NCBI GenBank assembly: GCA_003154195.1
Contig: PMCS01000030.1
Location: forward strand, 123,446-187,445
DNA: 64,000 nucleotides
Direction of reading: 5' to 3'
Origin: Candidatus Omnitrophota bacterium
GTDB taxonomy: Bacteria; Omnitrophota; Gorgyraeia; Duberdicusellales; 4484-171
Shown here: in pieces, positions 11,724 through 64,000 of the stretch
How the letters are laid out: each line of letters opens with the position of its first letter
Numbering within the stretch: position 1 is the stretch's first letter
The notes under the pieces: generated by a model
What the model was told of the DNA's origin: nothing
Databases searched by the model: none
Seen by the model: the letters and a program-made list of their open reading frames with translations, nothing else
Made by a program: the position numbers and the translations under genes

Positions 11724-11759
11724 GCGGATGGCGGATATTTTTTTGCGAAGCAACCCCTT

Positions 11760-11990
11760 CGCTTCGCTCAGGGGTAATTCGACTATCCCCTGCGGGGATA
11801 GTTCAACTACAGACATTTGCTTCACCTTCGGCTTGCAAATGTCTAAGTTTCACTACAGCCTCGCTGAACATGAGTACATGTTCACTCGGCTAAGTCTCAA
11901 ACCCCTTCGCTAATGCTTCAGGGGTAATTCGACTACAGCCTCGCTGAACATGAGTACATGTTCACTCGGCTAAGCCTCATTAAAATATGC
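11760..11990. repeat. Two tandem copies of the dispersed repeat family C (GGGGTAATTCGACTAC ... CGGCTAAG(T/C)CTCA)
   Basis: A near-identical roughly 75-bp unit occurs at 11861-11921 and 11924-11988. It is related to the copies at 63690-64000, 17640-17770 and 41705-41790. Confidence 0.5.
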
Positions 11991-12829
11991 ATAAACCTTA
12001 CTGGTTGGATAAAAAAATAAACTTAAGCGACATCCGGCGCACCAAGGAGCTTTTGCGCGGTTTCAAGCTCAGCACGGTTTGCGAAGAGGCGATGTGCCCT
12101 AATCTGGGCGAGTGTTTTCGTAAGGGGGTCGCCACATTTATGATTCTGGGTAATGTTTGCACGCGGCATTGTTCTTTCTGCGCGACTAAAAAAGGTAAAG
12201 GCAAACCGTGGGATATTGACGAGCCGATAAGAATAAAACAGGCGGCTGAAAAATTAAGATTAAGTTACGCGGTAGTTACTTCACCGACTCGCGATGATTT
12301 AGCCGATTATGGCGTGCAAGCTTTCTGCCGGACAGTCGAAGAAATCAAAAAAATAAAACCGGCGACTGCGGTGGAAATTTTAATTCCTGATTTTTGCGCC
12401 CAGGAAAGCGCTTTGAAAAAAATTTCCCGGTGCGGCGCCGATGTGGTGGCGCATAATCTGGAAACCGTACCCTCTTTATATATTAAGGTAAGGCAGGGCG
12501 CCGATTATGGCCGTTCCCTTGAGGTATTGCGCGCGGTTAAAAAAAACAACGCTGAAATAAAAACTAAGTCGGGAATTATGCTTGGGTTAGGGGAGAGGGA
12601 AAAAGAGGTGATGGAGGTGTTCAAGGACCTGGCGGGAGTAAACTGTGACCTTTTGACTTTAGGCCAGTATCTGTCTCCTTCGCGCAGGCATTATCCGGTT
12701 AGGGAATATATAAATCCCGCAAAGTTTATGGAATTTCAAGCGAAAGCTCTATCGTTCGGGTTCAAGAGCGTGCAGAGCTCGCCGTACTCACGTTCCTCGT
12801 ATTTAGCCGGGGAAATGTGCCGGCCATAA
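11987..12829 (+). CDS. lipA: lipoyl synthase
   Basis: Radical SAM motif CTRHCSFC plus the N-terminal cysteine cluster CEEAMCPNLGEC. Confidence 0.9.
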   Translation: MHKPYWLDKKINLSDIRRTKELLRGFKLSTVCEEAMCPNLGECFRKGVATFMILGNVCTRHCSFCATKKGKGKPWDIDEPIRIKQAAEKLRLSYAVVTSPTRDDLADYGVQAFCRTVEEIKKIKPATAVEILIPDFCAQESALKKISRCGADVVAHNLETVPSLYIKVRQGADYGRSLEVLRAVKKNNAEIKTKSGIMLGLGEREKEVMEVFKDLAGVNCDLLTLGQYLSPSRRHYPVREYINPAKFMEFQAKALSFGFKSVQSSPYSRSSYLAGEMCRP

Positions 12830-12946
12830 AATAAACTATTGCGCTAACGTATCTTTAGGCTAGAATAAATTCCCAGGGCAGAACCGAAAAAATGCATCGC
12901 GCCCGTTTAACGTGCGGGCAAATATTATTACGGTTAAGGAGGCTAA

Positions 12947-13222
12947 ATGGCTATAAAAACTATTGAAATAATTTGTACTCCTTGTTTTAAATGTGAAAAC
13001 ATAAAGAGGATGATCGGCGAAGCGGTCAAGGCCATCGAATTACAAAATAAAATAAAAATCGTTTATGATTTTAAACATACCATCCATCTTAGGGATGTGA
13101 ACCGGTATAGCGTTAATGCTTCGCAGGCGCCCGTTGTGATTATTAACGGTAAAGTTGAGCTTACCGGACAACCCTTGCCGGCAGTCCTGAAAAATAAGCT
13201 GGAAGCAATAAATAGATATTAA
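12947..13222 (+). CDS. thioredoxin-fold small redox-active disulfide protein (TIGR00412-like)
   Basis: 91 aa with a CTPC motif near the N-terminus and a VIINGKVE motif. Confidence 0.55.
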   Translation: MAIKTIEIICTPCFKCENIKRMIGEAVKAIELQNKIKIVYDFKHTIHLRDVNRYSVNASQAPVVIINGKVELTGQPLPAVLKNKLEAINRY

Positions 13223-13258
13223 AACAAAGAATTCTCTTCGTTAAAAGTATAGCGTTTA

Positions 13259-13292
13259 CCCCGTTAGAGAACGAAGTCCTCTAACGGGGTTT
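13259..13292 (+). terminator. hairpin (CCCCGTTAGAG ... CTCTAACGGGG) downstream of the thioredoxin-like gene
   Basis: An 11-bp perfect stem with only a short T-tract after it, so any terminator role would be weak. Confidence 0.35.
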
Positions 13293-13435
13293 ACTCCCCA
13301 GAAAATAATTAATTAGTGCTCTCAAAAACCCGAAAAACGCAGAACTTCTTGGAACTACTCACCTTTTCGCTCCCGCAGTCAAATTAACACACCCAATATA
13401 TAGTGGTATCAAAAAAAATATACCATATATAGAAT

Positions 13436-13465
13436 ATTATAACAAATTATAACAGATTATAATTG
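13436..13465 (+). promoter_or_regulatory. three 10-bp phased direct repeats (ATTATAACAA / ATTATAACAG / ATTATAATTG) upstream of the HTH-pilMNOPQ operon
   Basis: Exact 10-bp periodicity in an AT-rich promoter region. An adjacent imperfect inverted repeat (TATATAGTGGTAT / ATACCATATATA) lies at about 13397-13431. Confidence 0.35.
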
Positions 13466-13508
13466 ATTAGTTGAAAGAAATGTATTTAAATATAAACGTA
13501 ACCAATTT

Positions 13509-13706
13509 ATGAAAAAGATGAGAAAACAGAGAATAACACGATTGCTGAGCGTAGATGAGCTTGCCGATTATTTGGGTTTGCAAAAGCAGACTATTTATAA
13601 TTGGTTAAATCAAAAAAAGATTGCCGGGATAAAAATCGGCAAGGTCTGGCGTTTTGAGCGGAAATATATTGATGAATGGCTTACTAAATTGCAGCAGGGG
13701 CAATAA
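13509..13706 (+). CDS. small helix-turn-helix DNA-binding protein (excisionase/MerR-like HTH family)
   Basis: 65 aa. LSVDELADYLGLQKQTIYNWLNQKKIAGIKIGKVWRF is typical of Xis-family HTH_17. Its stop abuts the pilM start. Confidence 0.5.
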   Translation: MKKMRKQRITRLLSVDELADYLGLQKQTIYNWLNQKKIAGIKIGKVWRFERKYIDEWLTKLQQGQ

Positions 13707-15188: not shown

Positions 15189-15192
15189 AACA

Positions 15193-15672
15193 ATGGTGCA
15201 ACGATTTAAAAATATCTTGATCATCATCGCGGTTATCGCGGTTACTTTTATTATGATTAAGAATAAGTACGCTGATTATGACGCGCAAAAAAATAATATT
15301 GAATCCGACCGCACGGGTTTAGAAAAGAAAAAATTATTGGCAAAAGTCGGAGATAGCGTAGCGCGGGAATATGATGAAACCATTAAAAATTTCTCCTTTA
15401 AGGACGAGGAGGAGTTTAAAAAATTTGTGGGAGATGAAGCCGGCGAGCATAATGTCGTGGTTGATTCTTTCCGTCCCGCTAAAACCGATAAAGGGGTTTA
15501 TCTGGAGATAAAAATAGAGATTGTTTCGCCGTCGCCATACAAGAATGTGGCGGATTTTGTGAAAGCGCTGGAAGGGCAAAACATAGAGATTTTGAAGCTG
15601 GAAATAAAAAATATTTCCGAAAACGCAAGGCAGGCATTAATTGCGGTACGAGGAATAATTCCCAAGGTGTGA
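15193..15672 (+). CDS. PilO-like pilus assembly protein
   Basis: N-terminal TM helix and a charged coiled region, positioned between pilM/N and pilP. Confidence 0.45.
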   Translation: MVQRFKNILIIIAVIAVTFIMIKNKYADYDAQKNNIESDRTGLEKKKLLAKVGDSVAREYDETIKNFSFKDEEEFKKFVGDEAGEHNVVVDSFRPAKTDKGVYLEIKIEIVSPSPYKNVADFVKALEGQNIEILKLEIKNISENARQALIAVRGIIPKV

Positions 15673-15676
15673 CGCT

Positions 15677-16024
15677 ATGCGGAAAATAATTTTTCTCGCG
15701 GGAGGGATAGTTTACGTGATTTGTTTCAGCTTTCTGGGTTATGCCCAGGAGGCTCGCCGCGACCCTTTCGCGTCGTTACTTCCCAGAAAAACCCCGGTTG
15801 CGGATAATTCGCCACCTTCGGTTGAACGGGTAATAACGCCGCCGACGGTGAATATCCAGGGTTTGCTTTGCGGTACGAATATGCCGATGGCAATCATCGA
15901 TGGCGAGGTTTATAAAGAAGGCGATATCCTGGATAAAAGCGGAGCTAAATTATATAAAATAGAGAAAAATAAAATTTGTATCATTTATCAGGGGAAACCG
16001 TTCGACGTGATTATGGAGCAATGA
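15677..16024 (+). CDS. PilP-like pilus assembly lipoprotein
   Basis: Signal peptide plus the conserved RDPF motif. It is immediately upstream of the secretin. Confidence 0.45.
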   Translation: MRKIIFLAGGIVYVICFSFLGYAQEARRDPFASLLPRKTPVADNSPPSVERVITPPTVNIQGLLCGTNMPMAIIDGEVYKEGDILDKSGAKLYKIEKNKICIIYQGKPFDVIMEQ

Positions 16025-16055
16025 CCGGGGCGCGTAGTTTCAAATTTAAAATAAT

Positions 16056-17645
16056 ATGGTTATTCCTGAGCATACCTTGGGCGGATTGAGGGAGAAAAGA
16101 TTGAGAAAATATATTATTACGGCGATTTGTTTATGCATCGCTTTTTTACCGGAGGCGGGATTGCCGCAAGGGGATGTCGATAATATTTATGGCGATTATG
16201 CCATCGGCAAATCTCCCCAAAAAGTTTCCCTGGATCTTAGGGCCGCGAATCTTAATGATGTGTTAAAGATGCTTTCTCGGCAAACCGGCCTTAATTTTGT
16301 TTCCACGGAAACAGTTAAGGAGAGAGTCTTGACTCTGTATATGGATAATGTTCCCTTAAAAGAGGCGATGGATATAATTTTTAAGGCGAATAATTTAGGC
16401 TATGATTTTTATCCGGAAGCGAAGGTATTCGTGGTCAAGGAGCTGGGCAATCCTGCTATTGAAGTAAAAACCAAAGTTTACTATTTAAAATATATAACCG
16501 TCAATTCTTCGAACGTAAAAAGCGTTATTTCCGCCGGCGGCGAAACGGCAAAGACTCCCGGGGGCGGCGGGGGGCCAGGCGGCGGAGCTTCTTCCAGGGG
16601 CGGGGGCGCAGCGGCCGGCGGTTCGGGCGGCAGCCTTACGGATTCATTGAAGAACATGATGAGCGAATTTGGCAAGATATCGGAAGACCCGTTGACCAAC
16701 TCTTTGATTATTACCGATATCCCTACGCGCTTTCCTTTAATCGAGGAGTTGCTTTCCAAGCTGGATGTGCCTATCCCGCAGGTGATGATTGAAGTGGAGA
16801 TGCTTGATGTTTCCAGGGGGCTTATCGATCAATTAGGATTTAATTTTACCAACGGGTTTATCGCTACTTTTACGCCGGGGGGGTTCAGCACGCCATTCCC
16901 GTTGAAGGCTAAAGATAACTTCAACCTGGTTAATAAATTTTCTCCTATTTCTAATCTTGGCACGCCTGGTGGTCTTTTGAGCAACCTTGACTTCAGCAGT
17001 ATGCAAATGGTTATGCAATTTTTGAATAAAGACACTTCAACACGATTCTTAGCCCGGCCCAGGATATTGACTCTGGTTAATGAAAGCGCGGAAGTGGATT
17101 TAACGATGGATGAAGTAGTGAGCGCGGTGGGTACAAGTTCTCAAGGGACCGGACCAGCGGTAACTACTACTACGATTGAGCGAAAAGAAACCGGCACCAA
17201 GCTGACGGTTACTCCCCAGGTTAATCTGGAGACCGGGGAGGTTATCATGTCGCTGAACGTGAGCAACAAAGAATCGAAGATTTCAACCCTTACAGCAGCG
17301 ACTAAAGACATTGAAACGCGCGGCACAAAATCCATGGTACGCTTAAAAGACGGCGATACTCTTTTAATCGGCGGCCTCATCCGGAAAACCGACGAAGATG
17401 CTGTTACGAAAATTCCTTTTATTTCCGAGATACCGGTTTTGGGCAGGTTATTCCGGTATAAAAACACCAATCATACCGAACGTGAACTTTGCGTTTTCTT
17501 AACTCCGCATATAATAATCCCCTCAGCCGGTTCTTCTCCGGAGATTAAAAAGGAAGTTTTCCCTAAAGAAAGTTTTCAAAGGGAACAGGCCAACTACGCT
17601 AAGCAGGATGCCGTAAGGTCTTCGCTGGATAAATTCTCCCGTTAA
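16056..17645 (+). CDS. pilQ: type IV pilus secretin PilQ
   Basis: C-terminal secretin domain (LLIGGLIRKTDEDAVTKIPFISEIPVLGRLF), secretin-N domains and a Gly-rich linker. Confidence 0.85.
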   Translation: MVIPEHTLGGLREKRLRKYIITAICLCIAFLPEAGLPQGDVDNIYGDYAIGKSPQKVSLDLRAANLNDVLKMLSRQTGLNFVSTETVKERVLTLYMDNVPLKEAMDIIFKANNLGYDFYPEAKVFVVKELGNPAIEVKTKVYYLKYITVNSSNVKSVISAGGETAKTPGGGGGPGGGASSRGGGAAAGGSGGSLTDSLKNMMSEFGKISEDPLTNSLIITDIPTRFPLIEELLSKLDVPIPQVMIEVEMLDVSRGLIDQLGFNFTNGFIATFTPGGFSTPFPLKAKDNFNLVNKFSPISNLGTPGGLLSNLDFSSMQMVMQFLNKDTSTRFLARPRILTLVNESAEVDLTMDEVVSAVGTSSQGTGPAVTTTTIERKETGTKLTVTPQVNLETGEVIMSLNVSNKESKISTLTAATKDIETRGTKSMVRLKDGDTLLIGGLIRKTDEDAVTKIPFISEIPVLGRLFRYKNTNHTERELCVFLTPHIIIPSAGSSPEIKKEVFPKESFQREQANYAKQDAVRSSLDKFSR

Positions 17646-17849
17646 TTCGGCTACTGTCTCAATCTACGCCCCCGCCATCCCATAGATGGCGAGGTCTCGT
17701 CAATTCGTTTAACGAATTGACGGACTTCGGGCTTGATTTCGGTGAAGTCTCATTAAATATTTCCTTGCCCCCCGTAGTATTTCTATTATAATAAAATATA
17801 ACCTGGAATATAATTATAAAGCATAGAGTTCTCTTTTCAGGATATCGGG

Positions 17850-17990
17850 GAATCAGGATGTCAGGATTTGGGGATTGGGAAATCGGGGGATTAGGGAAAT
17901 GCCGAAGAAGCGATAGCTGTCAGCCAAATATCCCAATGCCCTAATTTCCAAATCCCAATTGCCTAATATCCTAATTCCTTTATTATTACA
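17850..17990. repeat. long imperfect palindrome built from GGGATT(A)GGG / CCCTAATCC-type short repeats (family B-like)
   Basis: Left arm GGATTTGGGGATTGGGAAATCGGGGGATTAGGG; right arm CCCAATGCCCTAATTTCCAAATCCCAATTGCCTAATATCC. Confidence 0.45.
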
Positions 17991-18041
17991 CTTGGTTAGC
18001 GCCGAAGGCACGCTAAGCTCAGTTAAAGGGGTTATAAACCA

Positions 18042-19751: not shown

Positions 19752-19799
19752 TAAAAATAACATAAAAACCAAAAAACTGAAAAACCAAAAAACTTAACA

Positions 19800-20174
19800 A
19801 TGAGCGATATTTTTAGATTCAGAGAATTTCCGGTATATAAAGACGCAAGAAAATTGAGAAAAGATTTAAAGCTGCTAAGTAAAGAAAAATTCCCCGGAAC
19901 CGAACAATATTGTTTAACATCTCAGTTGTGGAGAGCATTGGATTCGATTATTCTCAATATAGCCGAGGGTTCAGACAGATGTTCAGATACGGATTTCAGT
20001 AGATTTTTAAACAATTCCTTAACCTCCGTTAATGAAGTAGCCGCCCGTTTGGATTGTGCTTTAGATGATGGCTATATTACTGTAAAAGAGCAAGACATAT
20101 TTATTCCCTTGGCTGAAAATATTGCGAAACAGCTAAAGGCTTTTAGTTCAAAAGTACGAAATGATAATGGTTAG
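19800..20174 (+). CDS. four-helix-bundle protein (23S rRNA intervening-sequence protein family)
   Basis: 124 aa. The YKDARKL...FPGTEQYCLTSQLWRALDSIILNIAEGSDR...FLNNSLTSVNEVAARLDCALDDGYI pattern matches PF05635-type proteins. It is flanked by inverted A/T-rich repeats at 19752-19799 and 20175-20215. Confidence 0.7.
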   Translation: MSDIFRFREFPVYKDARKLRKDLKLLSKEKFPGTEQYCLTSQLWRALDSIILNIAEGSDRCSDTDFSRFLNNSLTSVNEVAARLDCALDDGYITVKEQDIFIPLAENIAKQLKAFSSKVRNDNG

Positions 20175-20215
20175 TTTCTCGGTTTTTAAGTTTTTTCGTT
20201 TTTAGGTTACCTACC

Positions 20216-35935: not shown

Positions 35936-36622
35936 ATGGATTATCGGATTCTCGGTTTTCTTTCAAAATATTCCCAAAAAACAAAACGGCTGTATTTTTT
36001 TCCTACCTGCCGGCAGTCCGGTCGGAACCGAAAAAATGCGTCATGCTTGCCTGACGGTAGTCAGGAATTTTTCCGGTTTATAAAATCCGTTACGTTAATC
36101 GAATTGATAATTACGATGACTCTTTTCAGCGTGATCATTATTGCCGCCGGCTCTTTTGAGATCACCGCTAACCGGCTTTTTCTTTCTTCGGAAAGAAAAG
36201 CGGCGGTGCTTAATGAGATGACTTATGTTTTAGAGCATATCAATAAAAGTTCCCTCCGGGTGCATAGTATGGGCGGCGGTAGCGGCGTTCAAGTTACGCC
36301 CAATACGAGGATAGCGTTTAGGTTGGATAATAATCCGCCGACGCCGCTTGTCTTTACCGACGATATATGGGTAGCCTATCAATTTGATACTGCGACGAGT
36401 AATATAAGTTATTGTCCCAACTGGAATACAGCAGGGGCAGGGTCATGCACCGGAGCTTGGGAAGTATTAACTTCAAGATTAAATAGTGTGACTATTGCCA
36501 CTACTCCTTACGTCAGTTTGCAGCTTACGGGCGTGTACAATCCGGCGATAGCGAACGATTCCAGCATTAATCCTAACGTAACTGTTCAGACTACTATTTA
36601 TTGTCCCGGTTACTCCTCATAG
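35936..36622 (+). CDS. pilin-like protein with an unusually long leader; the true start is uncertain
   Basis: A KSVTLIELIITMTLFSVIIIAAGS prepilin-like hydrophobic segment follows a 46-aa N-terminal extension. A TTG or other internal start is possible. Confidence 0.4.
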   Translation: MDYRILGFLSKYSQKTKRLYFFPTCRQSGRNRKNASCLPDGSQEFFRFIKSVTLIELIITMTLFSVIIIAAGSFEITANRLFLSSERKAAVLNEMTYVLEHINKSSLRVHSMGGGSGVQVTPNTRIAFRLDNNPPTPLVFTDDIWVAYQFDTATSNISYCPNWNTAGAGSCTGAWEVLTSRLNSVTIATTPYVSLQLTGVYNPAIANDSSINPNVTVQTTIYCPGYSS

Positions 36623-36653
36623 CTTTTATTTTTTGCTGCGCAAAAAATAAAAG
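36623..36653. repeat. AT-rich palindrome, family A (CTTTTATTTTTTGCTGCGCAAAAAATAAAAG)
   Basis: Perfect inverted repeat. The same core occurs at 39659-39683, 46241-46265, 40053-40080, 52713-52740 and 47497-47525. Confidence 0.6.
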
Positions 36654-39636: not shown

Positions 39637-39683
39637 CCATCCGCGAAGCGGATGGCGGTTATTTTTTGCGCAGCAAAAAATAA
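39637..39683. repeat. composite family A element: GC hairpin CCATCCGCGAAGCGGATGG plus AT palindrome TTATTTTTTGCGCAGCAAAAAATAA
   Basis: The same two modules occur in inverted order at 46241-46289. Confidence 0.6.
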
Positions 39684-39684
39684 T

Positions 39685-40077
39685 ATGAAACGAGAATTAG
39701 ACGTAGTCGCGGCGTTGATTAAAAAAGGCAGAAAGATACTCCTTTGCCGGCGGCATCTTCATGATCACTACGGCGGTTTGTGGGAATTTCCCGGCGGGGC
39801 GGTGGAAAAGGGAGAAACTTTTGAGGCGGCAATCGAGCGGGAGATAAAAGAGGAAACCGATTTAAACATTAAGGCTGTCCGATTGGTGGGTAAATTTTAC
39901 GATGAGGATGAAACGTTGATCATCCATATTTATTTGTATCGTTGCGATATCATTTCGGGGCAGATTGCCGCTCGCGATTGCGCCGATTTTGGATTTTTCC
40001 CCTTGCCGGATATCGCCCGGTTGGATTTAGCTCCAGCCGATAAGAAAATTTATTATTTTTTACTGCGTAAAAAATAA
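39685..40077 (+). CDS. NUDIX hydrolase (MutT-like)
   Basis: Nudix box GGAVEKGETFEAAIEREIKEETDL. Confidence 0.8.
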   Translation: MKRELDVVAALIKKGRKILLCRRHLHDHYGGLWEFPGGAVEKGETFEAAIEREIKEETDLNIKAVRLVGKFYDEDETLIIHIYLYRCDIISGQIAARDCADFGFFPLPDIARLDLAPADKKIYYFLLRKK

Positions 40078-40307
40078 TTTTTGTTCGCCGGTAGGCGAGG
40101 CCGCATTTTTTCCGGAGGAAAAAATGGAAAATATTGCAAATTTTAACGTTAAGGGGTATAATTTGATTCTATCCGCCTTCGCCGAGGCTTCGGCGGATGT
40201 CACTAAATAGGCAAGCCCATGTGGCGGGTAGCCTTGTGAGGCTTCGACGTATGTTGTAGCGGCGGATAATGCATTTAGTTACCATGGGCTTGCTCAAGGG
40301 GTGTTCC

Positions 40308-40924: not shown

Positions 40925-41719
40925 ATGGTTTTTGAAAAAATCGCCAAAAAAGTTTTTATCCGGTATCTGTTATTTGCCATCTGCTTTCTGTCTTTATGCG
41001 GGTGCGCTACCGAGTATAATACCGGGACTCATAAGGAAGATTGGATTTTTTATTCGACGGAGAGCGAGGTTTCGATGGGGCTGGCAATCTCCCGGGCAAT
41101 CGCTAAAGACAAGGAAATGAAAATATCCAATGACCCCATCGATATAAAACGCGTCAATAGAATCGGCGATAAGATAGCTGAAGTTTGCGACCGGAGCGAA
41201 TTGACTTATTATTTTTATGTGCTCTTGGACGAGAAAGAGGTAAATGCTTTTAGCCTTCCCGGCGGGTATGTGTATATCTTTAAAAAGCTTCTCGATGATT
41301 TAAACGATGATGAGCTGGCGTTTGTCCTGGCGCATGAGGTGGGCCATATTGTATCGCGCCACGCCATAAAGGCATTACAGGCGGCGATAGCGGCTAATGT
41401 TTTGACCCTTGCCGGAGCGTTTGCGCCCGGAGGCAGCGGGGAATTTGCGCAGGGTCTTTCTTTTGCTTTAGCGCAGATCATGGTGGGTTATTCGCGGGAA
41501 GACGAATTCAACGCCGACGAACAGGCGGTAAAGTACACTAAAATATGCGGTTATGACTCTAAGGCCGGGATAAACGTCATGGAAAAACTTTATAAAGAAG
41601 AAAAGAAAACCATAAACCCGATTTCATTTTTTCGGACTCACCCTTATACCGCGCAGCGAATCCGCCATATCAGAGAAACCCTGCATCTCCCGCTTTCTGC
41701 CGCCGACTACCTCAATTAA
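40925..41719 (+). CDS. M48-family zinc metallopeptidase lipoprotein
   Basis: HEVGH (HExxH) motif plus a distal E; lipobox LSLCGC. Confidence 0.8.
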   Translation: MVFEKIAKKVFIRYLLFAICFLSLCGCATEYNTGTHKEDWIFYSTESEVSMGLAISRAIAKDKEMKISNDPIDIKRVNRIGDKIAEVCDRSELTYYFYVLLDEKEVNAFSLPGGYVYIFKKLLDDLNDDELAFVLAHEVGHIVSRHAIKALQAAIAANVLTLAGAFAPGGSGEFAQGLSFALAQIMVGYSREDEFNADEQAVKYTKICGYDSKAGINVMEKLYKEEKKTINPISFFRTHPYTAQRIRHIRETLHLPLSAADYLN

Positions 41720-41790
41720 TGAGGCTTCGCCGAAATCAAGCCCGAAGGGCGCAGATTGAGGCGGTAGCCGAATTACCCAGCACTAATTTT
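41705..41790. repeat. repeat family C copy (inverted orientation)
   Basis: TTAATGAGGCTTCGCCGAAATCAAGCCCGAAGG is the reverse complement of CTTCGGGCTTGATTTCGGTGAAGTCTCATTAA at 17712-17745. Confidence 0.5.
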
Positions 41791-41922
41791 GCTGTGGCAA
41801 AATTAGTGCTGGGTATAGCGTAAACAGCTACTTCGTCGGTGACGTTTCGCTTTCCCAGCAGGAAAAATTAATCTGCCAATAGGCAGGACGGAGCCGGAAA
41901 AATGCGTTTCTTATTTTTCCGG

Positions 41923-43118: not shown

Positions 43119-43282
43119 TTTTTTGCTTTGCAAAAAACGGAAAAGTCTCGCCCGCCAAAATTGTAAAACAATTTTGGCGAGACGGACTCTCCGCAAAAGT
43201 TTGCTACCGTTCGCTCAGACAAATTATGGCGAGATATTGTTCTTCAAAGCCGGGCGTAGAAAATTGAAGAAAATGCTTTTCT

Positions 43283-46158: not shown

Positions 46159-46240
46159 TGCGCGGGGTGGGAGTTGAACCCACATGGGGGTTACCCATAC
46201 GCTTCTGAGGCGTACGCGTCTGCCATTTCGCCACCCGCGC
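46159..46240 (-). tRNA. tRNA-Leu (anticodon CAG)
   Basis: The reverse complement GCGCGGGTGGCGAAATGGCAGACGCGTACGCCTCAGAAGCGTATGGGTAACCCCCATGTGGGTTCAACTCCCACCCCGCGCA aligns well with bacterial tRNA-Leu, including the long variable arm. Confidence 0.85.
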
Positions 46241-46289
46241 TAATTTTTTGCTGCGCAAAAAATTAGAGCTCCATCCGCTTCGCGGATGG
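46241..46289. repeat. composite family A element (AT palindrome TAATTTTTTGCTGCGCAAAAAATTA plus hairpin CCATCCGCTTCGCGGATGG)
   Basis: Inverse arrangement of the element at 39637-39683. Confidence 0.6.
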
Positions 46290-46519
46290 AAAAATAAAAA
46301 CTTTTGATATTTTAAGGATAGGTTGCAAACCTGTTCTTACCGGAATTTATATTTTCCTAAATCCGCCGGAGGCGGATTTGGGGATAAAATAACCCCGCGG
46401 TGTTTCGCGGGGTTATTTTATCAATGCTATTATATTTTATTACCTTTGTCAACTAAATATGCTATAATCCCTAATCGGTAAACGCCGCAAAAGCGCTCTT
46501 CCGGTCAGGGGATTATCGT

Positions 46520-47470: not shown

Positions 47471-47624
47471 TGCTAAACCACCGACTTCGTCGATGGTAAT
47501 TCACTATTTTTTTTGCACGGCAAAAAAATAATTACCGTCCGCTTCGCGGAAGAAGAAAAAAATAAATATAAAAATACAAAATGTATTTATGTTGTGATGC
47601 GACAATCATGAGGGGGATTCGATT

Positions 47625-50367: not shown

Positions 50368-50410
50368 GTTATTTTTTTACCACGAAGACACAAAGTCGAG
50401 AAAATCAAAA

Positions 50411-50537
50411 ACCGGTTAAGGTAATGGTAAGGATGCCAGTATAGGTTAGGGTAAAGGTAAAGGCTTTAAAATTAGTATCAGCCTTTACCTTTGCCTTAGC
50501 CCAAACCGGCTTCCTTACCCTAACCCTAACCTTAGTG
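50411..50537. repeat. about 125-bp imperfect palindrome built from GGTAAGG / GGTTAGGGT short repeats (family B)
   Basis: Arms GGTTAAGGTAATGGTAAGG...GGTTAGGGTAAAGGTAAAGGC and GCCTTTACCTTTGCCTTAGCCC...CCTTACCCTAACCCTAACC. Confidence 0.55.
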
Positions 50538-50604: not shown

Positions 50605-52710
50605 ATGGCGCGTAAATATCCGTTGGAAAAAATCAGGAATATCGGAATCGTGGCGCATATCGACGCCGGTAAAACTACTACTACCGAGCGGGTGCTTTTC
50701 TATACGGGAAAATCTCATAAGTTGGGAGAGGTCCATAACGGCAGCGCGGTTATGGATTGGATGAAGCAGGAACAGGAAAGAGGAATCACTATTACCAGCG
50801 CTGCTACTACTTGTTTCTGGCAAGATTGCAGTATTACTATCATTGATACTCCCGGGCATGTCGATTTTACTGCGGAGGTGGAAAGGAGTTTACGCGTTCT
50901 TGACGGAGCGGTCGTTCTTTTTTGTGCCGTAGGCGGCGTAGAGCCGCAGAGTGAAACAGTGTGGCGCCAGTCGCAGAAATATAATGTCCCCAAGGTTGTT
51001 TTTATTAATAAAATGGATCGAGTGGGGGCTGATTTTTTTATGGTTTTAAAAGAAATACAGCATAATCTGGGCGCTAACGCCATACCTTTGCAGGTTCCTA
51101 TTGGGGCAGAAGAGAATTTTCGCGGCGTGATTGACTTGATCGAGATGAAGGCTTATATCTATGAAGAAGATTCATTGGGCAAGGAGTTTCGTATAGAAGA
51201 TATTCCTGCGGATTTAATAGCGATCGCTAAAGAATACAACCATAAGACTGTGGAAAAAGCCGTGGAGCTTGATGACAAATTGATGGAAAAGTATCTTGAG
51301 TCACAGGAATCGATTACCCCCGAAGAATTAAAAGCGGCAATCCGTAAAGGAACGGTTGCCAACAAGGTTGTTCCGGTGATCTGCGGCGCGTCTTTTAAAA
51401 ATAAAGGCGTACAGAAACTCCTTGACGCGATTATCGATTATCTTCCTTCGCCGGCGGATTTACCGCCGGTTACCGGCCACGATCCCCGGGATACCGATAA
51501 GCAGCTCGTCAGAAGTTGCGACGATAAGGAACCGTTCAGCGCGTTGGCGTTCAAAGTCCAGGCTGATTCTCACATGGGAAAACTTGTTTATTTGCGTGTT
51601 TATTCCGGCAGTCTTCCCGCCGGTACCTATATTACTAATGCCACAAAAGATAAAAAAGAAAGAATCAGCAGGATCTTCCAGATGCATGCCAACCAGCGCC
51701 AGTCTCAAGCTGAAGTTAATGCCGGCGATATTGTAGCGGTGGTAGGTTTGGAAGATACGATAACCGGCGATACTCTTTGTGATGAAAATAATCCGGTTAT
51801 ATTAGAGGCGATAGAATTTCCTACCCCGGTTATTTCCATAAGCGTCGCGCCTAAGACGCGCGCCGACCAGGATAAGCTGGGTAAGGGATTAATGCGGCTG
51901 GCAGAAGAAGACCCCACGTTCAATGTCGAGTCGGACCAGGAAACCAATGAAACTATTCTTTCCGGCATGGGCGAGCTACACCTGGAGATAATTGTCGACC
52001 GCTTAAAGCATGAATTCGGCGTTGAGGCTATCGTGGGTAAGCCTAAGGTTGCCTATAAGGAAACGATTACTCATAGCGTTGAAGAGGAATATAAGCACAT
52101 TAAGCAGTCCGGCGGCCGCGGCCAATACGGGCATGTTATTTTAAAGCTTGAGCCGGCCGATCCCGAGACCGGTTTCGAATTTATCAATGCCGTGGTAGGA
52201 GGAAGGATCCCCCGCGAATACATTCCGGCCGTAGAAAAAGGCGTAATCGAAGCGATGAAAGAAGGCGCTTATGCCGGCTATCCGGTTGTGGACGTGAAAG
52301 TCACGCTGCTCGATGGTTCATTCCACGAAGTTGATTCCAGCGAGATAGCCTTTAAGATTGCCGCCATCACTTGCTTCAAGAAAGCTTTCTTAAGGTGTTC
52401 TCCAATTTTACTTGAGCCGGAAATGTCTATGGAAATAATTTCTCCCCGAGATTTTGCCGCCAATATCGTCGGCAATCTTTGTTCCCGCCGGGGAAAAGTT
52501 TTAGGCATGGAGGAAAAGGTCGGCCAGCAAGTTATCGCTGCCAACGCTCCGCTTTCGGAGCTATTCGGTTATACTACCACTTTGCGTTCGCTTTCCAGCG
52601 GCCGCGCCAACTATTCGATGCACTTCGAAAAATACGTCCCCGTGCCGTTTGCCATCGCCGAAGCCGTAAGGGAAGAACGGGCAAAAGAAAAAGCGGCGCG
52701 TAACAAATAG
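50605..52710 (+). CDS. fusA: translation elongation factor G
   Basis: G domain [17 protein letters not shown] and NKMD motifs. 701 aa. Confidence 0.95.
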
Positions 52711-52869
52711 GTTATTTTTTACGCAGTAAAAAATAACCTTGGACCGCTGGCGCGGATCGGGAAAGTTCCGGTTCAGGCATTTTTCCCGGTTTGGCAAACT
52801 CTTTCAAAATACCTCAACTCCCCGAGTCAAATCAATCCGGGAAAATCGATAACCCTTTATTCTCCTTCG

Positions 52870-53899: not shown

Positions 53900-54045
53900 G
53901 TGTTGGAGTGTCAGAGAAAAACCGAAGGACGTGGGACGTCCGCGGTAGTAACCGCTGGGACGAAGGACGAGCGTCAAAGTGTCAGGGCGTCAGAGCGGTT
54001 TTTAACTATGACGCTGTGACGCTATGACACTTTGACACTATAATA
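53900..54045. repeat. palindromic short-repeat element (GTCAAAGTGTCAGGGCGTCAGAGCG / CGCTGTGACGCTATGACACTTTGAC)
   Basis: Inverted arms built from GTCA/GACG-type short repeats. Confidence 0.45.
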
Positions 54046-55932: not shown

Positions 55933-55992
55933 CCAACTTATCCAGCGGATTTTTGCGTCAGACAAAATATGTAAAATAAAAATTAAAAATTT

Positions 55993-57420: not shown

Positions 57421-57435
57421 TAAAAAGTAATAATC

Positions 57436-57568
57436 GGCTAAGGCTAAGGTTATGAAGCCGGTATAGGTAAAGGTGAGGGTTAGGGCTTAAAACAATTTTT
57501 TAGCCTTAACCTTGACCCTAACCCTAACCTATACGGGCATCATTACCCTTACCCTAACCATTTTGTAT
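57436..57568. repeat. about 130-bp imperfect palindrome of GGCTAAGG / GGTTAGGG / CCCTAACC short repeats (family B)
   Basis: Arms GGCTAAGGCTAAGGTTATG...GGTGAGGGTTAGGGC and GCCTTAACCTTGACCCTAACCCTAACC...CCCTTACCCTAACC. Confidence 0.55.
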
Positions 57569-57610
57569 ACTATGCCGGCGTCGTAACCATAGCCTTTACC
57601 GGAGTATATT

Positions 57611-58618: not shown

Positions 58619-58638
58619 ATTTTAAAAAGATAATTTTT

Positions 58639-59004: not shown

Positions 59005-59075
59005 ATCCGGTTTTTGTTTGAATTTTCTGTTGGCTTTCCGGAGAAACAGAGCTATAATTATTTAGATAGGAGAGG

Positions 59076-62000
59076 ATGATGAATAAAAAAATAATAACCG
59101 GCCGGATGTTATTTTGCGCATTAGCGCTGTGCCTGGTTGCTGTTTTTCAGGTTTTCGCGGAAAATATTATCTTGAAATCCGGGCGCGTAATCAACAAGCC
59201 CGTTATCGAGAAAGGTTACGATTTTATAAAAATCGATTTTGACGAAACGGTTTTAAAATTCTATTATTACGAGATTGCCAGCATTGATGGTAAGAGCGTT
59301 GAGATATTTACCGCGCCCGCCGAACAAACCGCCCAAGAAATTCCTGCCGCGGCTAACGCCGGAGAAGGAACCGCTAACCCCGAACCCGTAAAGAAAGAAA
59401 CGGCAGATAAAGATAAGCAAACGGTTGAGTCGCCGGCAGAAGGGCAAAGCGCAAAAAGCGCAGGGGAAAGCGTAAAACCGGAAATTTCCGAAAAAGATAA
59501 AGAAGCCGCCGATGCCGGGCAGCAAGCCCCGGCGTTATTTCCTGCGCCGGTGAGCGAAAAAGTTACGGCGCAAATTACAGTTTCTCCTGATTCTCACGGC
59601 GGCAGCCTCGCGGAAGAAATAGAAGTTCTTAAAAGAGAAATCAAGGATAAAGAAGATGAGCTGGCGCGGTTGAAGGCGGATTCGGCGGAAAAAGATAAGC
59701 TCACCGCTTTGTTGAAAGAACAGAATGAAGCGTTCGCGGCAAAAGAAAAAGACATTTTTTCCGGTACCGTTCGTTTCAACGATGAAATAAGCCGTTTATC
59801 CCAGGAGCTCGAGGCGGTTAAGAAATCGTTAAGGGATAAGGAGGACGATTTGGCGCAGGAAAAAAGCCTTTCGTCCGATAAGGATAAGCTTATCGCCGGT
59901 TTAAAAGAGCAGGTCTCCGCTTTTTCTTCCACGGAGCAGGAGCTGAATACTACTCTCAACCGGGCCAATTCCGGCATGATCGGCCTTGCCGAGGAATTGC
60001 AGGGATTTAAGAAAAGCCTTAAGGAAAAAGAAGCGGCGCTTGAGGAAATGAAACAACAGGCAGGGGGAAAGGACAGGGCTCTCGCTCATTTGCAGGAAAA
60101 AGCCAATTCGGCGGCAGATAAAGAAAAAAATTTCGATTCTTCCCTGGACGAAGCCGGCAGGAAAATTGCCGAACTTACAAAAAATAATGAAACCCTGACA
60201 GCCGATTTAAACGCGAAAAGCGCAAACCTTAATGAAGAGGCGGCAAAGATTTCCCGGAAGGATAAGATTATCGAAGACCTCAGCGCCAGGCAGGCCATCC
60301 TTTCGGAAAAAGAAAAAGAAAGTACCGATATTATAAATAAACTTAACGTTCAGCTCTCCGGTTTGTCCCGGGATATCGCTTCGTTTAAAAACGGCCTTGA
60401 GGCGAAAGATAATCATTTGCGCGAAAACGAAGGAAAATTTATCGCTAAGGACGAGCTTATCGCGAACCTCGCGGAAAAAAATAAAACTTTATCCGAGAAG
60501 GAAAAGCAATTGGCTGAGAACCTCGCGCGGGTAAACGCTGACTTAGGAAATATTTCCCGGGAAAGGGAAGCGTTAAGAAAAAGCGCCGGGGAAAAAGAGG
60601 CGGCGTTATCCCGTCTTGATAAAGATTTCTCCGATTTGTCGGCAAGAGAAAAAAATCTTAACGCGCAATCGGCAAAATCAAACGCCGTCGCTGAGAGCCT
60701 GGCAAATAATATCGATTCGTTGAAGAAGGAGCTCGGCGTAAAAGATAATGTTATCAACGAAATAAACGCTAAGTCAAAGGATAAAGACGCCGTCATCGTT
60801 TCCCTGCAGGAAACCAACGCGCAGTTTGCCGAAAAAGAAAAGGGATTGTCTTCTTCTCTGGCCCAGGCGGGGCTTAGCCTTTCCAATTTTTCCCAGGAAG
60901 TCGGCGCCCTTAAAAAAGTGATTCAAGCTAAAGATGACGCCATCCGGCAGGAAAAAGACCAATCCGCCGCAAAAGATAAACTTATCGCTTCGTTGAGCGC
61001 GCAGAATGAAAATATTCTCCGGAAGGAGGCGTTGATTGAGTCGAATTTCGATAAAGCGGGAGAAAGCATTTCTGCGCTTACGAAAGAAATGGAAACTCTT
61101 AAGAAAGACTTAAGCGCCGCGGAATTCCGCTACAAAGATGAAGTGGCACGTTCCCTGGAAAAAGATAATTCGCTCGAAGCCTTGAAAGCGCAGAGCGCCG
61201 CTGTAATCAAAAAGAACGACGAATATGAAACGACCGCCCGGGCGCTTAATTCAAAGCTGGAGAGTTTATCCAGGGAGATGGAAGATGTAAAAAATGAATT
61301 GGCGTTAGAGAAATCCCGTTCGCGGGATAAAGATAAACTGATTGTTGCCTTTAAAGATGAAAATGTGCGCGTTCTTTTAAGCGAGAAGGAATTATCCGCT
61401 AAATTTGACCGGGCCAATTCGCGCGCCGGCATTTTAGAAAAAACTTGCGGTGAAAAAGACGCTCAAGCAATCCAAAAAGATAATTTAATCGCGGGCTTGC
61501 AGAGTCAGAATAATGTTCTGGCGAAAAAGGCGGAGAGTGTGGCGGTAACGCTCGCGCAATCAAATCTAAGCGTTTCTCATTTCGCTAAGGAACTGGAAAA
61601 TTTTAAGAAAGAATTCAGTTTCCAGGGAGAAGCGATAAAAGCCAAAGACAGCCAGATCTCCCAGAAGGATGCAGCCCTCTCGGAGCTCAGCACTAAGCTC
61701 GCGTCTCTGACCCAGGAAAAGAATAACCAGCTTAACGAAAAGGAAGGTATCATCTCGTCTATTCCGGCAAAAGATAAGCTTATCGAATCTTTAAGGGGGC
61801 AGAATGTTGAATTGTCCAGGAAGAGAGAAGAGCTTAACGCCGAAACAGCCAGGCTTAATTCAGAAACTTCGCGTTTTACCAAAGAGATAGGCGCGCTTAA
61901 AGAAACCCTTGCGTCTAAAGACGCCGTTTTATTCCGGTCGGATGCTCAGGCTGCGGAGAAGGATAAGACTATCGCTTCGCTGAAAGAAGAAGCGGCTGCC

Positions 62001-63680
62001 GCTATTCAGAAAGGCGGCGCGATCACCGGGCTTAAGGGCCAGATCTCCCAGAAGGATGCAGCCCTCTCGGAGCTCAGCACTAAGCTCGCGTCTCTGACCC
62101 AGGAAAAGAAAGCCTTAGACGATACAGCGGCTAAATTAAACTCGGAGATCAGCCGTCTGTCCGGGGACAGAGAAGCTTTGCGAAAAGATAACGAGACTAA
62201 AGATAAATTGCTCAAGGAAAAGAATAACCAGCTTAACGAAAAGGAAGGTATCATCTCGTCTATTCCGGCAAAAGATAAGCTTATCGAATCAAAAGATACA
62301 GCTATCGCCGGTTTACAACAGCGTTTTAATGTTCTTGCGGCGGATAAAGACAGCCTTTTAGGAAAACTTAATGAGGCGGCGAAAAAAATCGATAGTTTAG
62401 AACGATCCACTACTTCTTTGCAAAAAGATACCGCCGGGCGCGAGAGTTTAAATAAGAAACTTCAGGCGCAGATTTCCGTCAACGATGAAGCAATCGCCGC
62501 TTTAAGAAAACAGGCCGATGCCGGCGCGGAAAAAGATAAGTTATTGGCCGTCGGGAAAGAAGAAAGGCAGAAATTTTTACAGAAAGAAAATAATTTGAAA
62601 GAGGAATTAGCTAAAGCCGGTTCCGAGATCAATCGCCTGAATGGAGCGTTGAATACCGGCCGGGGTGATCTTTTAACGCAGAGCGGGCAAATCCAGAAAC
62701 TTGAGGAGCAAGCCGAGGGAAAAGATAAGCTTTTGGCCGCCGCGAATCAACGCAATGACGTTTTATCCCGTAAAGAAAAAGATTCTGCCGCGGCGGTTTT
62801 CCGTTACGAAAATCTTGCTAAAGAGCTTGAGTCGGTAAGAAAAGATTTTGCGGGTAAAGAAACGGCTTATAAAGAAAAGCAGGCAAGATCTTTAGAAAAA
62901 GACAGCTTGATCGCGGAACTTAAGGCGCAAAATGCCAATCTTGCGAAAAAGGAAAACGATATTAACCGGAGTTTCACGAGCGCTAACCTGGAGATCAACC
63001 GTTTGTCGGCCGACCTTGCTGCGGCGCGTAACGAGATTAAATCCAAAGAGGGAATATTACAACGGTTGAGCAATCAGTCGCAGGGCCGGCAGGCGGTTGC
63101 CGCGACGATAAAAGGGCAGCAGCTGGCCGGGGGTTCTTCTCCGTCTAAAAATACCGCCGGTAAGGCCGGCGATAAGAACGAGGCGTTATTCTTATATGAA
63201 GAGATAGGAAGGCTTAACCGTAAGCTGGAAACAGACAGCAATATTTTAAAGGCAAAATACGGCCAGTCTCTGAGAAAAGACAAAGTGATTGACGATTTAA
63301 AAAATGAGATTACCAAAATGATTGATGAGTATAATGATGAGAGTGTGGCAAAAGAAAAAAATGTGGCCCAATTAAATAATCGAATAGCAGCTTTATCGAA
63401 AAGCAAACAAGATTTAGCCGGCGAGCTTGACGCGGTTACCGACGAAATCGGCCGTCTTACTGCCGCTTTCGTCGAGGAAAGCAAAACCGAAGATTCATCG
63501 AAGTTTTCCGGAGAAGCGCCAGCCGGCGCCGGCCGGTTGCGGAACATCTCCCGGTTAATTGAAGAAAAAGATAAGCAGATTGGGGAAAAAGAGAAACAAA
63601 TAGAATATTTAAAGAAAGTTATTGCCGACGTGATGGCAAAAATGAAGGTTGCTTCCGGCGGGGATTCGGCCGGCAGGTAA
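59076..63680 (+). CDS. giant (1534 aa) secreted coiled-coil repeat protein
   Basis: Signal peptide and a small N-terminal domain, then a Glu/Lys/Ala-rich region with more than 20 degenerate repeats carrying (E)KDKLIAxLKxQN motifs. Exact internal DNA duplications (61653-61789 versus 62040-62110 plus 62218-62288). Confidence 0.7.
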   Translation: MMNKKIITGRMLFCALALCLVAVFQVFAENIILKSGRVINKPVIEKGYDFIKIDFDETVLKFYYYEIASIDGKSVEIFTAPAEQTAQEIPAAANAGEGTANPEPVKKETADKDKQTVESPAEGQSAKSAGESVKPEISEKDKEAADAGQQAPALFPAPVSEKVTAQITVSPDSHGGSLAEEIEVLKREIKDKEDELARLKADSAEKDKLTALLKEQNEAFAAKEKDIFSGTVRFNDEISRLSQELEAVKKSLRDKEDDLAQEKSLSSDKDKLIAGLKEQVSAFSSTEQELNTTLNRANSGMIGLAEELQGFKKSLKEKEAALEEMKQQAGGKDRALAHLQEKANSAADKEKNFDSSLDEAGRKIAELTKNNETLTADLNAKSANLNEEAAKISRKDKIIEDLSARQAILSEKEKESTDIINKLNVQLSGLSRDIASFKNGLEAKDNHLRENEGKFIAKDELIANLAEKNKTLSEKEKQLAENLARVNADLGNISREREALRKSAGEKEAALSRLDKDFSDLSAREKNLNAQSAKSNAVAESLANNIDSLKKELGVKDNVINEINAKSKDKDAVIVSLQETNAQFAEKEKGLSSSLAQAGLSLSNFSQEVGALKKVIQAKDDAIRQEKDQSAAKDKLIASLSAQNENILRKEALIESNFDKAGESISALTKEMETLKKDLSAAEFRYKDEVARSLEKDNSLEALKAQSAAVIKKNDEYETTARALNSKLESLSREMEDVKNELALEKSRSRDKDKLIVAFKDENVRVLLSEKELSAKFDRANSRAGILEKTCGEKDAQAIQKDNLIAGLQSQNNVLAKKAESVAVTLAQSNLSVSHFAKELENFKKEFSFQGEAIKAKDSQISQKDAALSELSTKLASLTQEKNNQLNEKEGIISSIPAKDKLIESLRGQNVELSRKREELNAETARLNSETSRFTKEIGALKETLASKDAVLFRSDAQAAEKDKTIASLKEEAAAAIQKGGAITGLKGQISQKDAALSELSTKLASLTQEKKALDDTAAKLNSEISRLSGDREALRKDNETKDKLLKEKNNQLNEKEGIISSIPAKDKLIESKDTAIAGLQQRFNVLAADKDSLLGKLNEAAKKIDSLERSTTSLQKDTAGRESLNKKLQAQISVNDEAIAALRKQADAGAEKDKLLAVGKEERQKFLQKENNLKEELAKAGSEINRLNGALNTGRGDLLTQSGQIQKLEEQAEGKDKLLAAANQRNDVLSRKEKDSAAAVFRYENLAKELESVRKDFAGKETAYKEKQARSLEKDSLIAELKAQNANLAKKENDINRSFTSANLEINRLSADLAAARNEIKSKEGILQRLSNQSQGRQAVAATIKGQQLAGGSSPSKNTAGKAGDKNEALFLYEEIGRLNRKLETDSNILKAKYGQSLRKDKVIDDLKNEITKMIDEYNDESVAKEKNVAQLNNRIAALSKSKQDLAGELDAVTDEIGRLTAAFVEESKTEDSSKFSGEAPAGAGRLRNISRLIEEKDKQIGEKEKQIEYLKKVIADVMAKMKVASGGDSAGR

Positions 63681-63689
63681 TTTAACTAC

Positions 63690-64000
63690 CATTTTCGGGG
63701 ATAGTCCAACTACAAGTATTTTTTTGCGTCTTCGGTACAAATATCTAAATTTCACTAACCCCTTCGCTTCGCTCCGGGGTAATTCAACTACCGTTTCAAT
63801 CTGCGTTCTTCAGGCTTGATAATTCAACTAAGCCCGGAGTACCGGGCAAGTTTCATTACGGCGAAGTTTCAAACTCATTACCCTTCGGCTCCCTTCGGTC
63901 GCTCAGGGTAATTCGACTACAGCCTCTCGCTTCGCTCTTCCAGAGCTTGCGCTCGGCTAAGTCTCATTATAATAAATTGCTGCCCACTTCCGCAAGTTGA
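63690..64000. repeat. repeat family C array (at least three units ending GGGTAATTC(G/A)ACTAC ... CGGCTAAGTCTCATTA)
   Basis: Shares CCCCTTCGCTTCGCTC(A/C)GGGGTAATTCGACTAC and GGGGATAGT(T/C)CAACTACA motifs with 11728-11990. Confidence 0.5.

Follow-up and report, generated by a model that had tools for sequence, protein, structure and literature searches.

Family C, a dispersed family of small hairpin-forming repeats beside core genes in an Omnitrophota bacterium

The analyzed stretch of DNA, hereafter the window, comprises 64,000 nucleotides (nt) of contig PMCS01000030.1 (positions 123,446 to 187,445; assembly GCA_003154195.1) from a Candidatus Omnitrophota bacterium. Arrays of a short palindromic repeat, designated family C, occupy four sites in it: between the LplA gene and lipA (array A), after pilQ (array B), after an M48 protease gene (array C), and after the gene of a 1534-aa coiled-coil protein (array D). 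Family C is a well-defined and previously undescribed dispersed family of small hairpin-forming repeats, and it belongs to none of the named families tested. The first-pass annotation of the window had proposed a repeat family at these four sites with conserved termini around a variable hairpin. Both proposals were borne out, and the termini were found, moreover, to be complementary and to covary.

The family C unit is one long rod-like imperfect palindrome composed of a left linker (L), a core hairpin, and a right linker (R). The commonest unit has a length of 59 nt and the structure TAAT-TC-GACT-AC-P1(4 bp)-TC-P2(4 bp)-3 nt-P3(4 bp)-triloop-P3'-TT-P2'-TC-P1'-A-AGTC-TC-ATTA. The 11-nt linkers, which separate short hairpins in all four arrays, occur in two forms: L is TAATTCGACTA(C), with the variants TAGTTCAACTA, TAATTCAACTA, and TAATTCGGCTA, and R is AAGTCTCATTA, with the variants AAGTTTCACTA, AAGCCTCATTA, and AAGTTTCATTA. 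Because the two linkers are complementary and covary, L, core, and R form a single rod. The linkers pair through 4 bp, a TC/TC internal loop, and a further 4 bp, and the rod ends TAATTCGACTAC and AAGTCTCATTA pair with each other (TAAT-TC-GACT / AGTC-TC-ATTA). Terminal inverted repeats are present: TAATTCGACT and the reverse complement of the right end TAATGAGACT match at 8 of 10 positions, with a fixed 2-nt difference. Nearly always, a leader hairpin "a" (A-CCCC...GGGG-T, often CCCC-TTC-GC-loop-GC-TCA-GGGG) precedes the unit on its 5' side.

The pairing of the stems was retained in 95.3% of the cells in a one-fold alignment of 16 distinct units, whereas only 23–43% of the cells were paired in a control with the partners slid by 1–3 columns. 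Compensatory changes had altered 14 of the 20 pairs on both sides, and the observed value was reached by none of 500 shuffles. The linkers covary likewise (GACT/AGTC, GGCT/AGCC, and AACT/AGTT; TAAT/ATTA versus TAGT/ACTA). The outer internal loop is TC/TC in all 16 units and the inner one in 14; the two exceptions, GC/GC and AT/AT, are both self-complementary. The unit geometry is constant, most units being 59 nt long, and the folding z-scores of single units ranged from -2.9 to -6.1.

A covariance model of the unit (R1) was built from the 16 units and run over the window with filters off. Strong matches were obtained at the four array sites only (best E = 4e-26), with nothing credible elsewhere in the 64 kb, and high-scoring linkers in a position-weight scan were confined to the same four clusters. 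A generic 12-nt linker pattern with one mismatch performed no better than chance over the window (33 occurrences found, 24 expected) and was discarded. Tandem Repeats Finder listed no array at any of the four sites.

The two strands differ in the folds predicted for them. On the bottom strand, the internal loops become tandem G.A in a Y-GA-R context, as they do in the leader hairpin, and the apical loops are mostly of the GNA type (GAA, GUA). With RNA parameters, the bottom strand was more stable in 22 of 25 units, by 3.8 kcal/mol on average, and its whole rod closed, including the terminal TAAT/ATTA helix; with DNA parameters, which hold no G.A bonuses, both strands were about equal. The bottom strand is therefore the more likely folded form according to these predictions, either as RNA or as single-stranded DNA. 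Two other indications of strand were rejected: the wobble pairs had no bias (8 G.T and 5 A.C), and a reading of the apical loops as UNCG tetraloops, a signature of RNA, was fitted equally by a TTC/TAC/TTT triloop model, for which the other strand reads GAA/GTA.

Family C is not limited to the window. A lack of further genomic copies would have refuted the first-pass annotation, but about 12 further distinct loci were recovered from peat metagenomes with a strict 21-mer spanning the junction of leader hairpin, L, and core. All were strong model matches (E from 1e-16 to 1e-26), and the family loci yielded 25 matches in total. Pattern matches on unrelated contigs gave no match to the model, which, together with the shuffles, rules out chance or low-complexity alignment. 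The 21-mer scan of species-representative genomes gave no true copy (one chance match, in an Actinomycetota bin), so that assembled copies are evidently missing from the representative of the host species, and viral contigs gave chance matches only. A literature search on palindromic repeats of Omnitrophota and on the assembly accession turned up nothing relevant. Within about 72 kb of contiguous genome, five arrays were present, approximately one per 14 kb, all of them intergenic or overlapping stop codons only.

The array-bearing locus itself was recovered by exact protein look-ups in numerous independent assemblies from peat and permafrost (ENA, JGI, Logan, and NCBI GCA_003154645.1). Many of their contigs end inside array A, and its 80-nt segment, formed by core hairpin "d" and the leader hairpin, is present in one, two, or at least three copies depending on the assembly.

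Two syntenic relatives share the gene order gcvT-H-P1-P2-lplA-lipA-HTH-pilM...pilQ-pilB, and 22 kb of their sequence contained no match to the covariance model. One relative has a 23-nt overlap between lplA and lipA, which are separated by 263 nt in the window; the other has 10 nt between pilQ and pilB, compared with 396 nt in the window. The comparison shows a gain relative to these relatives and is evidence that the arrays are insertions. The nearest lipA homolog found had an identity of 62%, and the named homologs were labeled Candidatus Omnitrophica or Omnitrophota. Because lipA overlaps lplA in one relative, translational coupling of the two genes is suggested there (L053 7860, L054 215). 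In the window, lipA lies downstream of a terminator-like repeat and array A and starts 4 nt after the last R linker, without a Shine-Dalgarno-like sequence (11983–11989).

Particular variants recur at separate loci. The 113-nt variant of array B has a second copy with an identical insert about 48 kb away, just past the 3' end of the window (L045 16885–16997). One composite of array D, 160 nt long, shares 78% identity with a composite on another contig, the composite of mini-unit "f", CGGCG, and R from the same array recurs in loci L015, L022, L023, and L030, and subfamilies of the leader hairpin are common to several loci. The only strain-level single-nucleotide polymorphism seen inside a unit is at 17693, within the 54-nt insert of the pilQ copy (C in the window, T in L002–L005).

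The sites occupied by the arrays are precise. At seven array ends, the boundary falls exactly on a TAA stop codon. The TAA of the L linker is the stop codon of pilQ, where it forms the first three bases of array B, and of the coiled-coil gene, while the complement of the R-linker TTA is the stop codon of the genes of the M48 protease (41717–41719), PhoH/PIN protein, aspartokinase, GroEL, and a TonB-dependent receptor. Array D extends from the TAA of the coiled-coil gene (63678–63680) to that of the convergent PhoH/PIN gene (63967–63969, minus strand); since both of its ends are stop codons, it fills the whole gap between them. The right-end junctions are A/T-rich, with TTA directly followed by A in 14 of 20. 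The flanks are TTAA at the pilQ unit, (A)TTA/TAA at three others, and CAA versus TAA at insertions into a second dispersed repeat, palT.

The palT repeat has the form ATCCGCGAAGCGGAT-GGNNNTTA-T6-8-GC-GCA-GC-A6-8-TAA and consists of a GC hairpin (ATCCGC-GAA-GCGGAT) and an A/T palindrome (TTATTTTTTGC-GCA-GCAAAAAATAA); in sequence it looks like a bidirectional terminator. Five arrays interrupt it, always at one point, right after GC-NNN-GCAA. Uninterrupted copies are found in the window at 39640–39690, 46230–46290 (minus strand), and 47505–47550, as well as in locus L030. Further palT sequences of the window are at 1020–1095, 36619–36650, 40046–40127, 43119–43140, and 52705–52736, and the repeat follows tRNA-Ser and tRNA-Leu.

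The suggestion that the arrays stand at operon 3' ends in all four places did not hold, as array A lies inside the gcv-lplA-lipA cluster, ending 4 nt before the lipA ATG (11987). Nor did it extend beyond the window, where arrays occur in either orientation, beside tRNA genes and upstream of genes. At locus L032 (5511–6408, equal to L015 10319–11216), the space of about 1.2 kb that separates a histidine kinase gene from secE-nusG-rplK is filled by three arrays and two tRNA genes; these arrays adjoin the tRNA genes, precede secE-nusG-rplK, and have the strand opposite to that of transcription and of all genes there. Array orientation is mixed relative both to the neighboring genes and to GC skew, where no bias was seen. 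The arrays have no terminator T-runs of their own, and around arrays A and B, scans for promoter and terminator consensus sequences remained at background level. A good sigma-70-like promoter match, TTGCCC-16-TATAAT (10/12), is located at 17765–17792, directly after array B and upstream of pilB.

The internal organization of the arrays is given in Table 1. Array A has the order a - L - b - [L' c R'] - d - R(truncated) - a - L - d - R, in which the ACTA of the first L is immediately followed by a nested complete unit; the fold z-scores of this unit were -4.7 (top strand) and -6.1 (bottom strand). The 80-nt duplication left segments 11852–11899 and 11932–11979 98% identical. Near-identical tandem units, as first annotated, are thus present only in array A, whereas array D is a mosaic of eight linkers built from different modules, in which mini-unit "f" is nested within core hairpin 63791–63871. 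The array sites of the first-pass annotation were confirmed, with corrected borders; array D ends at 63969 and not at 64000. The copy after pilQ had been called partial and is in fact complete, with an insert in its apical loop. The copy after the M48 protease gene, described as partial or inverted, is inverted and also complete. Beyond the window, a long array at locus L036 (5864–6187, minus strand) abuts the groEL stop codon and contains a core-deleted unit (TAATTCGGCTAC-AGTTTCAGG-CTCATTA) and one unit with paired GC/GC in place of the inner TC/TC loop. At locus L012, a unit is adjoined by two open reading frames (ORFs) without annotation, whose hydrophobic translations suggest that the products are probably membrane proteins.

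Table 1. Family C arrays of the window, their component modules, and the palT copy interrupted by array A.
Feature	Position	Strand	Basis or remark
Array A	11752-11982	+	Between LplA gene and lipA
Array B	17643-17755	+	After pilQ
Array C	41717-41814	-	After M48 protease
Array D	63678-63969	+	After 1534-aa coiled-coil gene
palT copy ATCCGCG(T)AAGCGGAT-GGCGGATA-T7-GCGAAGCAA	11705-11751	+	Array A inserted in its descending A-run
Array A, leader hairpin "a" (A-CCCC-TTC-GC-TTC-GC-TCA-GGGG)	11752-11774	+	Sequence reading; bottom strand resembles 3' hairpin of GA-cis, below threshold
Array A, L linker TAATTCGACTA	11775-11785	+	Linker scan
Array A, small hairpin "b" (TCCCC-TGC-GGGGA)	11786-11798	+	Sequence reading
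Array A, complete unit, variant covarying linkers (TAGTTCAACTA ... AAGTTTCACTA)	11799-11855	+	Model, 59.9 bits
Array A, core hairpin "d" copy 1 with truncated R linker (AAGTCTCA)	11856-11899	+	Model, 17.7 bits
Array A, second leader hairpin "a"	11900-11924	+	Sequence reading
Array A, complete unit (L + core "d" copy 2 + R)	11925-11982	+	Model, 61.3 bits
Array B, unit of 113 nt, 54-nt two-hairpin insert in apical loop	17643-17755	+	Model, 54 bits
Array C, complete 59-nt unit	41717-41775	-	Model, 84.1 bits, E 4e-26
Array C, long leader hairpin "a" (ACCCAGCACTAATTTTGC-CACA-GCAAAATTAGTGCTGGGT)	41776-41814	-	Sister copy in locus L030
Array D, model match	63702-63757	+	21.3 bits
Array D, 39-nt mini-unit "f" (TAATTCAACTA-AGCCCGGAGTACCGGGC-AAGTTTCATTA)	63820-63858	+	Model, 30.5 bits
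Array D, terminal complete unit	63909-63969	+	Model, 77.1 bits

We consider it moderately probable that family C is a palindromic mobile element, non-autonomous and specific to its lineage, of the kind represented by REPINs, bacterial interspersed mosaic elements (BIMEs), and miniature inverted-repeat transposable elements (MITEs), which spreads via a folded single strand, with a preference for TA(A)/A-rich sites. Behavior like that of MITEs or repetitive extragenic palindromic (REP) sequences had been suspected in the first-pass annotation, and it agrees with the further copies, the contig breaks in the repeat, the absence of arrays at orthologous sites, and the variant common to two loci. 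The mixed orientation of the arrays is also as expected of selfish DNA, rather than of an RNA signal in the sense strand.

As regards the mobilizing enzyme, the intermediate, and the target rule, we infer the following course. The propagating unit would be the leader hairpin (A-CCCC...GGGG-T) together with the 59-nt rod hairpin. It would spread through a folded single-stranded intermediate, likely the bottom strand, recognized in trans by an enzyme, most plausibly of the HUH/Y1 type or another transposase preferring TA(A)/A-rich targets. The preferred targets would be such sites at stop codons, at terminator hairpins, and at the ends of the element itself. Existing copies, which end in ...ATTA and carry the same flanking motifs, would recreate targets, and because of this new units would pile up head to tail or nest; the preference for the element's own ends would therefore lead to mosaic arrays. 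Local recombination could subsequently alter the tandem copy number. Where cotranscribed, the stable hairpins would probably also act as barriers or insulators at mRNA 3' ends, as a side effect and not as the family's reason to exist.

Several observations weigh against a mobile element. No transposase, RAYT included, was found in the window or beside the arrays, among about 40 ORFs analyzed by Pfam and precomputed annotations in approximately 0.2 Mb of host sequence. The neighbors of the arrays are housekeeping genes, and neither the family loci nor the viral contigs revealed an autonomous element sharing the ends of the units. The copies diverge rather strongly from locus to locus; their stems are fully compensated and their linkers almost invariant, a pattern that would also fit long-term purifying selection for a host function. 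Target duplications of TA, TAA, or TTAA each fit some copies only, and no pair of empty and filled versions of one site was found; at the pilQ and M48 array sites, all assemblies were identical, with no strain-level empty site. GT(A/G)G, which canonically marks the 5' side of the REP palindrome, is not in that position here, and the differences in tandem copy number could partly be assembly artifacts.

Comparison with known palindromic repeats demonstrated partial likeness in each case. REP elements and REPINs, known from Pseudomonas and Escherichia coli, are mobilized by RAYT transposases of the Y1 HUH type. In REPINs, conserved ends enclose a spacer, and compensatory changes preserve both its length and its hairpin (Bertels and Rainey, PMC3116915); REP sequences carry a conserved 5'-terminal GT(A/G)G directly before the palindrome (PMC3686654). 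Like REP sequences and REPINs, family C consists of short, multi-copy, extragenic imperfect palindromes. In common with REPINs, its ends are conserved and inverted, the spacer length and hairpin are kept by compensatory changes, and the lineage-specific copies form higher-order clusters, including tandem ones. However, the top strand of family C has CTAC before the inner hairpin, the GTAG of the bottom strand following on the 3' side. Family C also differs from REPINs in that its half-units are not palindromes themselves, tandem TC/TC (read as G.A from the opposite strand) forms every internal loop, the unit has an additional leader hairpin, the copies are more divergent than a typical REPIN population, and no RAYT gene was found in the approximately 0.2 Mb of host sequence.

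The BIMEs of Escherichia coli resemble family C as mosaics of palindromic units and a small set of short linkers, situated between genes and at operon ends, in which a motif alternates its orientation along the array (L being roughly the reverse complement of R). The sequences are unrelated, however, and in family C the hairpins are variable and the 11-nt linkers constant, with units nested inside linkers and core hairpins. With MITEs that target TA, such as the Neisseria Correia elements, or that are Tourist-like (TAA/TTA duplications), family C shares terminal inverted repeats starting TA..., A/T-rich junctions, insertion beside genes with the element supplying or keeping the stop codon, and cotranscribed hairpins. 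It differs from them in that the 59-nt core is much smaller and the entire element folds as a single rod hairpin whose stems covary; nor could a consistent target duplication be demonstrated, and no parent insertion sequence is known.

Two further systems were compared. BOX elements of Streptococcus pneumoniae have a modular A-B(n)-C structure with a variable number of internal modules, a strong predicted RNA structure, and no known transposase. Family C is similarly modular, but its sequence and fold are unrelated, and the BOX modules are not complementary linker pairs. CRISPR arrays consist of direct repeats of 23–50 nt that alternate with unique spacers of similar length, and they are accompanied by cas genes. 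Unlike in CRISPR arrays, the constant parts of family C are 11-nt linkers in alternating orientation, and the "spacers" are hairpins common to several loci; the only match to CRISPR-repeat models scored 13 bits against a threshold of 45.

The main rival explanation is an array of structured RNA or protein-binding sites with a function for the host. The units might be 3'-end stabilizers, terminators, insulators, or platforms for an RNA-binding protein or RNase that reads single-stranded or tandem-G.A motifs, perhaps distantly related to GA-cis (RF02987); we regard this as possible, if unlikely. The very strong covariation, the strictly constant geometry, and the near-invariance of the linkers beside variable stems would suit such a function, as would the closed rod with tandem G.A loops on the more stable bottom strand and the position of the arrays at gene ends, starting inside stop codons. 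In the pilQ copy, three C-to-T changes are compatible with pairing only through G.U, on the strand that is transcribed together with pilQ. In addition, the bottom strand produced GA-cis matches at three array positions, limited to the leader hairpin and linker, with scores of 24.5, 18.7, and 13.6 bits. In these, the 3' hairpin of the model and its linker are aligned with the leader hairpin (ACCCC-UGA-GC-GAA-GC-GAA-GGGGU) and the linker GUCGAAUU, and tandem G.A is common to both. However, even the best score is below the gathering score of 34.7, the 5' hairpin of the model is unmatched, and GA-cis is described as a single cis-regulatory motif, whereas family C is a dispersed mosaic repeat. At gathering score, Rfam returned only tRNAs in the window and 13 family loci, with no family for the units. 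The mixed orientation would cause about half of the copies to be transcribed as the wrong strand, the G.T and A.C mismatches have no strand bias, syntenic relatives lack arrays at the same sites, and terminator T-runs are missing from the arrays.

A related proposal, which we hold doubtful, departs further from the known systems. The units could be substrates of a dedicated single-strand-specific enzyme that reads the G.A-punctuated rod and the 11-nt tail, and would then represent a new class of miniature elements homing precisely to TAA stops and terminator A-runs of essential genes; otherwise, they could be G.A-hairpin scaffolds for a host RNA-binding protein, related to GA-cis.

Single-stranded DNA recombination or nicking sites, like integron attC or HUH origins, serving a site-specific recombinase or Rep-like nuclease, appear improbable. 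The unit does resemble attC sites ("59-base elements") in being an imperfect palindrome of about 59 nt with conserved unpaired positions, and a minority of its left ends fit RYYYAAC (ATTCAAC, GTTCAAC, ATTTAAC, and GTCCAAC). In compound arrays, the L motif can occupy the loop of a GGGG/CCCC stem. Substrates of HUH enzymes (IS200/IS605, relaxases) combine a hairpin with a conserved tail, and an 11-nt conserved tail is found 3' of each family C hairpin. Nevertheless, the right end reads GTYTCAY and not the GTTRRRY of attC, the units abut head to tail with no ORFs or cassettes between them and are scattered among core genes, and no integrase or Rep gene was found among the annotated neighbors.

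It is very unlikely that the units are a double-stranded DNA signal for protein binding or uptake, in which the 10-nt motif TAATNNGACT in inverted pairs would act like the paired DNA uptake sequences (DUS) or uptake signal sequences (USS) that double as terminators, or like the nucleoid-protein and gyrase sites of E. coli BIMEs. One short motif does occur in both orientations at gene ends, and type IV pilus genes (pilM, pilQ, pilB) adjoin two arrays. However, the motif is confined to the units within the window, known uptake sequences occur about once per kb, far more densely than the arrays, duplex recognition would need neither stem covariation nor fixed hairpin geometry, and the motif copies differ systematically, with TC on one arm where the complement is GA. 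Chance similarity, low complexity, or an assembly artifact, to which the empty Tandem Repeats Finder list and the assembly-dependent copy number might point, has a negligible probability in view of model E-values down to 1e-26, the folding z-scores, and the same arrays in independent ENA, JGI, NCBI, and Logan assemblies.

Other repeats of the window are distinct from family C. Inverted arrays of 7–8-nt periodic repeats lie at 7817–7936, 19756–20210, 17840–17980, 50409–50531, 57510–57564, and 53969–54041, and are of the types (AAAAACTG)n/(CAGTTTTT)n, (GGGATTNG)n/(CNAATCCC)n, (GGTAAGG)n/(CCTTACC)n, and (GAGCGTCA)n/(TGACGCTN)n. One such pair flanks an ORF (19800–20174) for a 124-aa four-helix-bundle protein of PF05635 ("23S rRNA IVP"), and the pair at 7817–7936, with arms 36 nt apart, is like an empty version. 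The coiled-coil ORF (59076–63680) has a 189-nt periodicity and exact internal duplications (61651–61723 equal to 62038–62110; 61714–61789 equal to 62215–62290), and numerous assemblies are interrupted within it.

Omnitrophota are uncultured, and their genomes come from metagenome bins only; a repeat that breaks assemblies beside core genes (lipA, pilQ, groEL, and tRNA-secE-nusG) affects bin completeness and gene calling. Family C also provides a clean natural data set of a compensated hairpin, with fixed 4-bp helices and invariant tandem G.A/T.C loops between them. Its precise placement at stop codons and at one position of a terminator-like repeat could reveal how small palindromic elements choose safe sites. 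If a mobilizing enzyme is found, biology of the REP/RAYT type would be extended outside Proteobacteria; if the units instead bind a host protein, they would provide a context for the orphan GA-cis-like motif.

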